A DNA stretch of 64,000 nucleotides from Mobula birostris (GCF_030028105.1 NW_027274405.1:1-64000), one strand, 5' to 3'. Counted from the stretch's first letter, positions 6,436-62,462 are shown. Notes: generated from the letters alone by a model not told the origin. Numbers and translations: made by a program.

Positions 6436-9400
6436 GTGAGTTTGCTGGGGGGGGGGGGGAACCATAACGGGACGGTGATATAACTCAGCACTCTCACGTT
6501 CCCTGCTCTCTCTACACCACAACCCTCCAACTCCGTGCCATTTCTCCCCCTCCCCCCTCTTTCCCCTCCCCTCCCCGCTCTTCTGCCCCCGCTCTCATTC
6601 CCCTCCCTTCTCCCCTCCACTCTTTCCCCCTCTCCCCTTCCCCAAACCCCTTCCTGTCTCCCTTCCCTTCCCCCTCCCCCTCCCCCCACTCTCTCCACCC
6701 CTCTATTCCTCCCCCTTTTCCCCACCTGTCTCCCACTCTCTCTGCACCTCACTCTCTACACCCCCCCTCACTTTGGCTCTCTCTGCCCTGAATCTCCTGC
6801 CCTGAATCTCCTGCCCTGAAACTCCAGCCCTGAATCTCATGCCCTGAAACTCATGCCCTGAATCTCATGCCCTGAATCTCATGCCCTGAATCTCATGCCC
6901 TGAAACTCATGCCCTGTCTGCCCTCACTGAACACCCCCCCATCCAGGGCCTCCGTGGAACGCTACCGAGCCGCCATGTTGCTCAGTGCGGCAGGCGATTC
7001 GCTTGGATACCGGAACCAACGATGGGAATACTGTGAGAGTGGTCCCCAGATTCACCAGGAGCTTGTCGAGCTAGGAGGTGTCTATGCCATTGAAGTCCGT
7101 CTCCCCGACTGGAGGGTTAGTGATGACACCGTGTTACATCTTGCCACAGCAGAGGCACTGAACTCAGGTCAGTGACTGTGGGAGGGAGTTTCACTCTGTG
7201 TCTGACCCCAGGAGTGTGTGATGGGACGGTGTGGAGGGAGATTCACTCAATGTCTGACCAAGGAATCTGTGATGGGACGGTGTGGATGGAGTTTCACTCT
7301 GTGTCTGACCCTGGGAGTGTGTGATGGGACGGTGTGGAGGGAGTTTCACTCTGTGTCTGACCCTGGGAGTGTGTGATGGGACGGTGTGGAGGGAGATTCA
7401 CTCTGTGTCTGACCCCGGGAGTGTGTGATGGGACGGTGTGGAGGGAGTTTCACTCTGTGTCTGACCCCGGGAGTGTGTGATGGGACGGTGTGGAGGGAGC
7501 TTCACTCTGTGTCTGACCCCGGGAGTGTATGATGGCACAGTGTGGAGGGAGATTCACTCTGTGTCTGACCCCGGGAGTGTGTGATGGGACGGTGGGGAGG
7601 GAGATTCACTCTGTGTCTGACCCCGGGAGTGTGTGATGGGACGGTGTGGAGGGAGATTCACTCTGTGTCTGACCCCGGGAGTGTGTGATGGGACGGTGTG
7701 GAGGGAGTTTCACTCTGTGTCTGACCCTGGGAGTGTGTGATGGGACGGTGAGGAGGGAGCTTCACTCTGTGTCTGACCCCGGGAGTGTGTGATGGGACGG
7801 TGTGGAGGGAGCTTCACTCTGTGTCTGACCCCGGGAGTGTGTGATGGGATGGTGTGGAAGGAGATTCACTCTATGTCTGACCTCGGGAGTGTGTGATGGG
7901 ACGGTGTGGAGGGAGATTCACCCTGTGTCTGACCCCGGGAGTGTGTGATGGGACGGTGTGGAGGGAGTTTCACTCTGTGTCTGACCCTGGGAGTGTGTGA
8001 TGGGACGGTGAGGAGGGAGCTTCACTCTGTGTCTGACCCCGGGAGTGTGTGATGGGACGGTGTGGAGGGAGCTTCACTCTGTGTCTGACCCCGGGAGTGT
8101 GTGATGGGATGGTGTGGAAGGAGATTCACTCTATGTCTGACCTCGGGAGTGTGTGATGGGACGGTGTGGAGGGAGATTCACCCTGTGTCTGACCCCGGGA
8201 GTGTGTGATGGGACGGTGTGGAGGGAGATTCACTCTGTGTCTGACCCCGGGAGTGTGTGATGGGACGGTGTGGAGGGAGATTCACCCTGTGTCTGACCCC
8301 GGGAGTGTGTGATGGGACGGTGTGGAGGGAGATTCACTCTGTGTCTGACCCCGGGAGTGTGTGATGGGACGGTGTGGAGGGAGATTCACCCTGTGTCTGA
8401 CCCCGGGAGTGTGTGATGGGACGGTGTGGAGGGAGATTCACTCTGTATCTGACCCTGGGAGAGTGTGATGGGACGGTGTGGAGGGAGATTCACTCTATGT
8501 CTGACCCCGGGAGTGTGTGATGGGACGGTGTGGAGGGAGATTCACTCTGTTCCTGACCCCGGGTGTGTGTGATGGGATGGTGTGGAGGGAGATTCACTGT
8601 GTCTGACCCTGGGAGTGTGTGATGGGACGGTGGGGAGGGAGCTTCACTCTGTGTCTGACCCCGGGAGTGTGTGATGGGACGGTATGGAGGGAGTTTCACT
8701 CTGTGTCTGACCCCGGGAGTGTGTAATGTGTTGTATGTTGCTGTTTCTTGTGATGAAGATGTTCAGAATTCGGGAATGAGGCATAAACCTGTTGTGTACA
8801 ATTGTTTTGCTGAAACGAAGGAATGAGGAAACAATCAGAGAATAAAGAGATAGTTGTCGTCTCGCAGAAACCAGGTCCGAGTGTAAAATGACAATATTGC
8901 AGTGACCATAATTAACCACTGAAATTGGCAGGTACAGGTGATGTGGCACCTATTGCAGGAGAACTTCGAAGCAGTTATACCATAATGGCTGGAATTTCCC
9001 TGAACAATTAAACACGCCTAGATGATTGATTCTGTCAGAAACCTCAAAGCAGGTGGTCTTGATAGAACTGACATTGTGTTGGGAAGACCGGATTGAGGAG
9101 GTGTTTAAATGTAAGAAAGCCAAATACCAGGAGCTGGTAGAGCAGTGCCAGGGTCAGGTGGAGAGAATGATGTGAGCCTATAGAGGTCGGGGGTGGATAT
9201 TTCGCTGGCTGCTCATGTGTAGAACCTACTCTGTCCTAGGCATTACAGGGGATGCAAAGAAGAGTCATCAGGACCGTCACCGAGGCTACTGAGTGAGCCT
9301 CCAGATGGTTATGTATCAAGAGATGCAGCCCATGGACCAATGCTACTGGGACTCAAGCCAGGGCCTGATCAACCCTGGCTGGGTCACCTGGGTGAGAGTG

Positions 9401-61600: not shown

Positions 61601-62462
61601 CGTCTGAAGTCCAAAGCCAACTCTTCGGTCTGCTATCCTTGAGTGGGTTGTTGTTGTGGAACCACTCAGCTGGCCCAGTCAGACCAGCTACACATACGCG
61701 CGAATTTGCACAACGCTTTGAGAACTGAACCTCTGAGTTAAACTCATTGCTCCGCCCGCCCAGTGGTGCGATCGGCTCTCCTCCCATTGGCTACGCTCTG
61801 ACCTGTCCCTCTCCTGATTGGCAGGGTCTGAAGCCAATGGATTTGAACGGTCTTTCGGATCCTTACGTGAAGCTCCACCTTCTGCCAGGACCCTGCAAGG
61901 TGGGTATCGGATCCATGTCCAAATGGGCAGCGATGGACAGAGGGAGGGGTGGGCAGGAGGGGGAAGGAGATAAAACGGGGAGCGCCTCCACACCGTCCCA
62001 TCACACACTCCCGGGGTCAGACACAGAGTGAAACTCCCTCCACACCGTCCCATCACACACTCCCGGGGTCAGACACAGAGTGAAAGTCCTTTTGTAACCA
62101 TGGATGTTGTTATTCCCAGGGAAACAAGCTGAGGACGAAGACGGTGCGTAACAGCCTGAACCCTTGCTGGAACGAGACGCTGGTCTATTACGGAGTGATG
62201 GACGAGGATCTCCTTCGTAAAACTCTCAGGCGAGTGGGTGAGACTGGGGGGCAGGTGCCCTGTGCGAGACCAGGATACTTGGAACTCCTGGGCTGTGAGA
62301 TCTTCCTCTGTAACCCAGGTCTCCCGTTGTCCCCGCAGGGTTTCTGTTTGTGATGCCGACCTGCTAGGTCACAACGACTTCATTGGGGAAACGCGGGTCC
62401 CACTTCGGAAGTTAACAGCCGACCAACGAAGGCACTTTAATATCGTTCTAGAGAGACCACCG
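58388..62462 (+). CDS. DOC2A: Double C2-like domain protein (probably alpha), 5' part (Munc13-interacting domain + C2A); join(58388..58655,59989..60068,61825..61899,62120..62229,62339..62462)
   Basis: [15 protein letters not shown] (MID), [73 protein letters not shown]2A-type residues (EFDLLY, PGxCK, HFNI) and SEZ6L2 adjacency favour DOC2A. The gene continues beyond the window. Confidence 0.82.
59989..60068 (+). CDS. DOC2A: DOC2A C2A exon
   Basis: tgc[33 protein letters not shown]. Confidence 0.9.
60770..60840 (-). mobile_element. Penelope-like terminal fragment with a decayed hammerhead
   Basis: Minus strand CTGATGAAGGGTCTCGATCTGAAATGTTGACTG. Confidence 0.55.
60885..61670 (-). mobile_element. 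Rex1/Babar-type LINE fragment
   Basis: [34 protein letters not shown]. Confidence 0.75.
61825..61899 (+). CDS. DOC2A: DOC2A C2A exon
   Basis: gc[33 protein letters not shown]. Confidence 0.93.
61985..62085 (-). repeat. 52-bp minisatellite, 2 units, reverse orientation
   Basis: Same unit inside a 220-nt DOC2A intron. Confidence 0.95.
62120..62229 (+). CDS. DOC2A: DOC2A C2A exon (GC donor)
   Basis: cc[38 protein letters not shown]. Confidence 0.88.
62339..62462 (+). CDS. DOC2A: DOC2A C2A exon
   Basis: cgc[45 protein letters not shown]. Confidence 0.9.

Follow-up and report, generated by a model that had tools for sequence, protein, structure and literature searches.

The subject of this study is a 52-bp minisatellite unit (the 52-mer) in a 64,000-nucleotide stretch of Mobula birostris DNA (GCF_030028105.1, NW_027274405.1:1-64000; hereafter the window), where an initial annotation, made from the sequence alone, had placed its arrays at splice sites of three unrelated genes and proposed a dispersing satellite associated with such sites. 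We found that the 52-mer is, with a probability of about two in three, an ordinary dispersed minisatellite that adjoins exons about as much as other tandem repeats do, having settled in formerly tiny introns that were later inflated by transposons. Its association with exons is real but modest and non-specific. A more unusual find than this association is a Tx1-type retrotransposon that inserts at one fixed point of the 52-mer.

Enrichment beside exons

We sampled 201 array edges with 450 nt of flanking sequence; removal of 14 paralogous or duplicated edges left 187 edges from 105 arrays, mostly at the end of C3. The 1,345 control positions came from the same loci and kept a distance of 300 nt or more to every array. 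We used splice-site frequencies to predict candidate internal exons within 100 nt; only such whole-exon candidates separated edges from controls, which single-site splice-matrix scores did not (best acceptor, 14/112 vs 221/1200; best donor, 14/112 vs 118/1200). Candidates scoring at least 14 were then scanned against Pfam, at every edge and at a subset of 626 of the 1,345 controls drawn in random order, and a match to a host gene was accepted at E<=0.001; three transposon-derived control matches and two weaker edge matches were left out of the count.

At a splice-matrix score of 16, an exon candidate was present at 39/187 edges of the 52-mer, at 16/91 edges of other tandem arrays and at 140/1,345 controls (52-mer vs controls, p=8e-5). 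Pfam-confirmed exons lay within 100 nt of 14/187 edges and of 7/626 controls (p=2e-5); two of the 14 edge matches are weak coiled-coil matches, and dropping both gives p=2e-4. Inspection by eye, which was not blind and drew on presumed gene identities, gave 32/187 edges vs 14/626 controls. When interspersed and tandem repeats were masked, with a repeat library of only 1.2 Mb, the enrichment ratio fell from 6.7-7.7 to 3.4-4.1. These data demonstrate that the enrichment of the 52-mer beside exons is real; the initial annotation had staked its proposal on an excess that survives control for gene density, and such an excess was found against local positions.

The excess is shared with other tandem repeats. 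Other tandem arrays of the same loci had a Pfam-confirmed exon at 5/91 edges, a rate above controls (p=0.011) and indistinguishable from that of the 52-mer (p=0.62). Moreover, the 32 array-exon distances are spread evenly over 0-99 nt (median 49; Kolmogorov-Smirnov p=0.61) with no peak at the splice site, and the four arrays of 32 that lie within 10 nt of a splice site are fewer than the six expected from a flat spread. Thus, of the family first proposed, dispersal and an excess beside exons are supported, while specificity to this family is not. Similarly, the claim that no array lies in mid-intron or intergenic DNA holds in the window but not elsewhere: a recognisable coding exon lay within 100 nt of 26/105 sampled arrays, a lower bound in that first, last and non-coding exons are missed, and none was recognised at the scored edges of the other 79. 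Six sampled arrays fill their introns, leaving 42-147 nt of other sequence; with two introns of the window, the range is about 20-150 nt. In L020 and L105, a donor stands at the first base of the array. Separately, strong donor motifs occur on the same strand 15-30 nt downstream of the array end at L027:1940, L087:3387 and L120:3266, a possible exonisation of array ends.

Four arrays in three introns of the window

Tandem Repeats Finder (TRF) recovered all four arrays essentially where they had been described, in three genes: ADPRH-like, SEZ6-family and DOC2-like (Table 1). A mismatch-tolerant scan of the window revealed no fifth array of the family. The four arrays represent three introns, not four independent events: arrays 1 and 2 form the two ends of the ADPRH-like intron 7168-16112. 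All four do lie near splice sites, as first noted, but arrays 3 and 4 are close to both intron ends by construction, because they fill most or half of small introns (about 900 of the 939 nt of intron 50794-51732 and about 105 of the 220 nt of intron 61900-62119). Six of the eight edges of the 52-mer lie within 100 nt of a splice site, compared with 7/46 edges of 23 other tandem arrays and with 4% of all non-exon positions, or 7-8% of non-repeat positions.

An RNA-like contig leaves the window sequence at 7168 and resumes at the exon start 16113, indicating that both ADPRH arrays are removed in one splice; runs X1 and X16 are called RNA-like solely because their contigs skip this intron. The reading frame is open after the exons are joined across 7168-16112, and junction peptides are open across all three introns, with exons intact and the repeat blocks confined to introns. 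We also confirmed that the acceptor at 16112 takes its pyrimidine tract from the last unit of array 2, and that no transposable-element ends or target-site duplications surround the arrays.

The material between arrays 1 and 2 is likely a set of later insertions. We considered whether these two arrays are a single array split by insertions: their orientation and near-continuous phase (array 1 ends at about unit position 38, array 2 restarts at about 45) fit, but there is no duplication at the break, and the idea is unproven. One unit variant is private to array 2 (four matches genome-wide, all within it) and so pointed to no source locus.

Other tandem repeats also occur in the window. Seven unrelated arrays, which resemble avian intron stuttering, end 7-66 nt from splice sites (6780-6916, 27831-28071, 38514-39511, 43433-44137, 46037-46203, 49623-50085 and 59747-59953). 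A second family of two arrays, with a 47-bp unit (94% match) resembling a pyrimidine tract plus AG, sits at 30221-31247 and 37692-38013 in the long first intron region of the SEZ6-family gene, beside an assembly gap.

Distribution of the 52-mer in the genome and in relatives

Copies elsewhere in the genome were found by pattern searches, of which the first 100 matches each were listed. The exact 51-mer has 2,927 matches and a one-base variant 840. Since about 9% of units in the sampled arrays are exact, at 1.5 exact matches per array, these counts suggest some 2,000 or more arrays genome-wide, an estimate from a sample biased towards exact matches. Copies cluster near chromosome ends and in a few other regions: among the matches listed, they concentrate at 3-14 Mb of C3 (250.7 Mb) and over the final 6-7 Mb of C4 and C5, with some interstitial clusters (C6, 81-99 Mb; C7, 112 Mb). 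Those listed also touch C9, C12, C20 and C29, and the 41 matches of a rarer variant, all of them listed, fall mainly at C17 100-112 Mb, on C33 and C34 and on unplaced contigs; the same unit therefore occurs at many unlinked loci. Array length has a median of 717 nt (range 105-4630; 99 arrays). The guanine-plus-cytosine (GC) content of array flanks averages 51%, vs 40-44% in four array-free samples of C3. The recognised genes flanking arrays belong to human 1q21-23, 8q24.3, 12p13 and 16p11.2, regions that may correspond to bird dot chromosomes. In a stingray, tandem repeats and GC content rise towards chromosome ends, according to a preprint (bioRxiv 10.1101/2025.06.08.657570).

Several further observations concern the abundance of such repeats. 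At C17 104-111 Mb, arrays have been duplicated along with C-type-lectin-like genes (L060/L062, L064/L066/L072 and L065/L071), so segmental duplication multiplies arrays too, and C17 108.49 Mb has arrays of several kilobases. Nor is the 52-mer alone as a dispersed family: a C-rich minisatellite of 26-32 bp recurs at L023, L025, L049, L094 and L124. In run X1, which we guess to be RNA, 8,255 contigs match the unit at very high summed depth, and the repeat may be abundant in transcripts.

Runs of organisms A, B, D and F contain the 52-mer in abundance. Comparison with relatives, suggested in the initial annotation as a search for empty sites, instead showed arrays 1 and 4 already present in organisms D and F, at about 4-6% divergence: the array 1 junction was seen in DNA-like runs of both, and contigs flanking array 4 run into the array in both. 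No empty site was found in the contigs of these two organisms, which are short and break inside arrays. A protein search with the array translation returned one gene model, from Hypanus sabinus.

Properties of the unit and mode of spread

We found no sign of the targeted mobility that the initial annotation had considered. No target-site duplication was present in 99 two-ended arrays: flank words of at least 6 nt were shared in 10% of arrays vs 12% in shuffles, and words of at least 8 nt in none. Fixed ends and inverted repeats were likewise not found in the 99 arrays, whose end phases are spread over the unit. A homopolymer adjoins the edge of only 2/99 arrays, and both are tails of the Tx1-type element described below. 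Apart from paralogues and inserted elements, array flanks are unrelated to each other. The unit has no Rfam match near threshold, no stable fold (z-scores +1.0, +1.9, -0.9 and +2.5) and no canonical G-quadruplex (G4) motif, and neither of its strands holds a strong splice site (best donor 5.3 bits, best acceptor 1.1 bits).

Together, the lack of duplications, fixed ends, tails and an RNA motif argues against a mobile element, and leaves, as the inferred route, ectopic recombination or copying templated by repair, with tandem expansion afterwards. Specifically, a miniature inverted-repeat or short interspersed element is not supported, given the missing duplications, termini and tail of its own. 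An introner-like intron was rejected because the host splice sites lie outside the arrays, with the exception of one acceptor tract, and the unit lacks strong sites; a ribozyme-bearing satellite or retrozyme, because there is neither an Rfam match nor a stable fold.

The arrays also contain elements of about 80 nt that carry 8-bp duplications and are inserted at one variant of the 52-mer unit. We take these short elements, at L102:3176, L116:3966, L045:797 and L010, to be hAT-like.

A Tx1-type retrotransposon that targets the 52-mer

Several arrays shared one flank, which proved to be the 5' end of a retrotransposon of about 6.3 kb without long terminal repeats (a non-LTR element). The copy in L206 has a pair of open reading frames (ORFs), 684 and 1220 amino acids long, with zf-CCHC in ORF1 and Exo_endo_phos plus RVT_1 in ORF2, and ends in a poly(A) tail. 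Its protein is 36% identical over 1293 columns to the Tetraodon Pol-like protein Q76IM5, which we take to belong to the Kibi/Koshi group. Domain order and this identity, rather than a tree, point to a Tx1 placement. Relatives of the element are found in skate, stingray and bullhead shark records. The element is young, with one fixed insertion phase in the 52-mer. The best-scoring copies are 98-100% alike at their ends (40 each scored of 371 and 772 candidates).

In 28/30 loci, an identical stretch of 15-16 nt from the C-rich 52-mer strand stands before the 5' end, and in 15/30 this 52-mer sequence comes after the poly(A) tail; the other 15 include nine duplicated loci. Exact tail-target junctions number 118 genome-wide (54 + 64), and on the forward strand 40 junctions compare with 174 tail matches of a slightly different pattern. 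Insertion is accompanied by a duplication of 15-16 nt, and head-to-tail chains of the element are separated by that single piece. The junction sequences thus show the arrays to be a landing site for the retrotransposon. In a paper on Tx1 elements (Kojima 2015, PMC4494074), an element counts as target-specific when one target makes up >20% of flanks, a level that the ray element exceeds (15/30 of its 3' flanks).

Copies outside the arrays retain traces of them. Among 10 full-length off-target copies chosen for retrieval, 8 bear some 12-43 nt of the 52-mer at the 5' end, a pattern that transcription from within an upstream array would produce; in L197, the carried piece has a 20-bp host duplication on one side and the element on the other. 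Off-target copies often lie in LTR-retrotransposon sequence or in other tandem repeats. There is no copy in the window. Because none of the carried pieces amounts to a full unit and the window is free of copies, the element is probably a passenger of the arrays and not their main vector. Our literature search, whose coverage did not extend to Repbase, Dfam or preprint supplements, found no description of the 52-mer repeat or of this element.

Host genes of the window

We mapped 26 exons in the window; those bordering the arrays are listed in Table 1. Over the query, the SEZ6-family gene shares 95% identity with a protein of Mobula hypostoma, and the gene at array 4 is DOC2/rabphilin-like; its exons beside that array had no coverage by the RNA-like runs.

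Table 1. Arrays of the 52-bp minisatellite, neighbouring exons and copies of the Tx1-type element (window coordinates unless a locus is named).
Feature	Position	Strand	Evidence and remarks
Array 1, 52-bp minisatellite	7174..8728	+ (G-rich strand sense)	TRF: 30.0 copies, 93% match; 6 nt inside donor of ADPRH-like intron
Array 2, 52-bp minisatellite	14373..16106	+	TRF: 33.4 copies, 93% match; 3' end of ADPRH-like intron, 6 nt from acceptor
Array 3, 52-bp minisatellite	50806..51702	-	TRF: 17.2 copies, 93% match; last SEZ6-family intron, 12 and 30 nt from splice sites
Array 4, 52-bp minisatellite	61985..62089	-	TRF: 2.0 copies, 98% match; DOC2-like intron, 85 and 30 nt from splice sites
Interior between arrays 1 and 2	8729..14369		interspersed repeats make up at least 46%; two unrelated tandem arrays also present
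ADPRH-like coding exon, upstream of array 1	6947..7167	+	homology; RNA-like contig
ADPRH-like coding exon, downstream of array 2	16113..16211	+	exon mapping; RNA-like contig
SEZ6-family penultimate coding exon	50691..50793	+	100% to P0001 residues 835-869
SEZ6-family last coding exon	51733..51762	+	exon mapping
DOC2-like exon, upstream of array 4	61825..61899	+	exon mapping
DOC2-like C2-domain exon, downstream of array 4	62120..62229	+	homology; exon mapping
Tx1-type element copies	L125:542-6447, L126, L206:1006-6732		C3 and many other contigs

The gene order is PRODH-like, ADPRH-like, SEZ6-family and DOC2-like, on one unplaced contig of 105 kb. Intron interiors are filled by fragments of long interspersed nuclear elements (LINEs) bearing reverse transcriptase, for example at 16833-18311; a short ORF at 9026-9172, with no Pfam match, presumably resembles the restriction-like endonuclease region of some non-LTR elements. 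A gap of 500 N at 38014-38513, together with the lack of any exon in the window for residues 12-412 of the SEZ6-family protein, implies that several exons are missing or misplaced in the assembly. The DOC2-like intron after exon 62120-62229 has an apparent GC donor at 62229-62231.

Discussion

How might an ordinary minisatellite come to lie beside exons? In regions rich in recombination and in GC, ectopic recombination or insertion templated by repair may copy pieces of the 52-mer from one locus to another, where tandem expansion would follow. Mid-intron positions, unlike those beside exons, likely tolerate transposon insertions and large deletions, and exon-flanking arrays would persist for that reason. 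The arrays, being spliced out, are probably near neutral, with occasional local co-option, as at the acceptor at 16112, and likely with a filter on strand. Because of the strand bias considered next and that array-derived acceptor, a role of the arrays in splicing stays conceivable.

Several of our results weigh against this explanation. The G-rich strand is the sense strand in 11/12 Pfam-confirmed arrays (p=0.006; 20/26 arrays by eye), a bias not expected under pure neutrality. Beside exons, an excess of 3.4- to 4-fold remains after masking (Pfam, 12/140 vs 5/205, p=0.01), so intron inflation alone may not suffice. The window rate of six in eight edges exceeds the sampled rate, with p~0.0005 per edge set, or 0.03-0.05 when the arrays are treated as three introns. 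The comparison with other tandem arrays is low in power, with 5/91 edges, two of whose five exons are also among the seven control matches. The phases of array ends depart slightly from uniformity (p=0.01 and 0.04). Finally, the copying mechanism was not observed, nor was an empty site found.

Some of these points would be accounted for if tandem repeats in general arise or are kept beside exons for an active reason, be it recombination or repair starting at exon flanks or an aid to splicing from G-rich sense repeats, with the 52-mer as one beneficiary. The residual enrichment, the sense-strand bias, the acceptor tract at 16112 and the donors that coincide with the first base of the array in L020 and L105 all favour such a reason, as does the coding-strand over-representation of G4 motifs in bird dot-chromosome introns in one preprint (bioRxiv 10.1101/2025.10.17.683159). 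The distance distribution is flat, however; the unit has neither a canonical G4 nor a strong splice site; two of the three window introns carry the 52-mer in the opposite orientation; and incomplete masking would yield the same residual. We regard an active cause as improbable, although it is the most serious competitor to a neutral origin.

Less probable still is that the Tx1-type element is the vector, such that transcripts from an upstream array would bring units to new locations, where the seed would grow into a tandem array before the element itself disappears. The pieces carried by off-target copies, including that in L197, are what this scenario calls for, but each is smaller than one unit. 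In the full-length copies examined, long upstream arrays are matched by a downstream array, as expected for insertion into an existing array. Moreover, the window lacks the element, homopolymer edges other than element tails do not occur among the 99 arrays, and the element is scattered over chromosome interiors, where no exact units occur among the matches listed. About as doubtful is a fuller partnership in ray segments of dot-chromosome type, in which the Tx1-type element would home to one phase of the 52-mer, start transcription inside it and export seeds, while arrays would be kept beside exons with the G-rich strand sense as helpful or harmless to splicing.

It is very unlikely that the 52-mer is a family-specific satellite with a function in splicing that either homes to splice sites or is passed between intron ends through conversion: all four window arrays, the enrichment over local controls and the 4/32 abutting arrays speak for it, but 79/105 sampled arrays have no recognised exon within 100 nt, other tandem repeats reach the same rate, the abutting cases fall short of the flat-spread expectation, and the unit lacks coding capacity, membership in an RNA family, a fold, fixed ends and duplications.

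As an ordinary dispersed minisatellite, the 52-mer can be compared with several known systems. Like bird dot-chromosome introns (bioRxiv 10.1101/2025.10.17.683159), the ray regions are gene-dense and GC-rich with minisatellite-rich introns, and the bird introns have G-rich motifs that favour the coding strand; in zebra finch, the minisatellite excess of dot chromosomes is attributed to one specific minisatellite in introns and intergenic DNA. Unlike bird dot chromosomes, the ray regions are mostly ends or segments of large chromosomes, their introns are also LINE-rich, and the 52-bp unit lacks a canonical G4. Avian sequence stuttering (Hron et al. 2026, PMC12954441) likewise produces imperfect tandem expansions confined between exons, often at an exon border, and the other tandem arrays of the window look so; stuttering is described as strictly local in origin, whereas the 52-mer is common to thousands of loci and not derived from an adjacent exon.

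The retrotransposon has its own counterparts. As in Tx1L, Keno, Kibi, Koshi and Tx1-Mar (PMC4494074), there are two ORFs (zinc knuckle; apurinic/apyrimidinic endonuclease plus reverse transcriptase), a poly(A) tail and one repeated target, with tandem copies separated by one duplication and target-derived 5' extensions. Those elements target a microsatellite, a small nuclear RNA gene or a transposon, unlike the ray element with its dispersed 52-bp minisatellite; in a figure legend of the same source, satellites appear among the targets of some Tx1 family, and targeting of a satellite is thus already known in itself.

In mammals, subtelomeric and splice-adjacent variable number tandem repeats are GC-rich, lie at chromosome ends and are turned over by recombination and conversion, and a few affect nearby splicing. 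Their units are mostly locus-specific, unlike the 52-mer, which is one unit at thousands of loci.

Our results suggest that the minisatellite-rich introns of bird dot chromosomes are paralleled in rays, where an exon-side excess of tandem arrays can be measured along with a strand bias, and that the cause of this architecture can now be tested outside birds. The 52-mer and its Tx1-type element offer a natural system for asking how such elements gain sequence specificity and whether they seed new minisatellite loci. If the partnership set out above were true, it would constitute a self-propagating intronic repeat system that links retrotransposon targeting to intron evolution.

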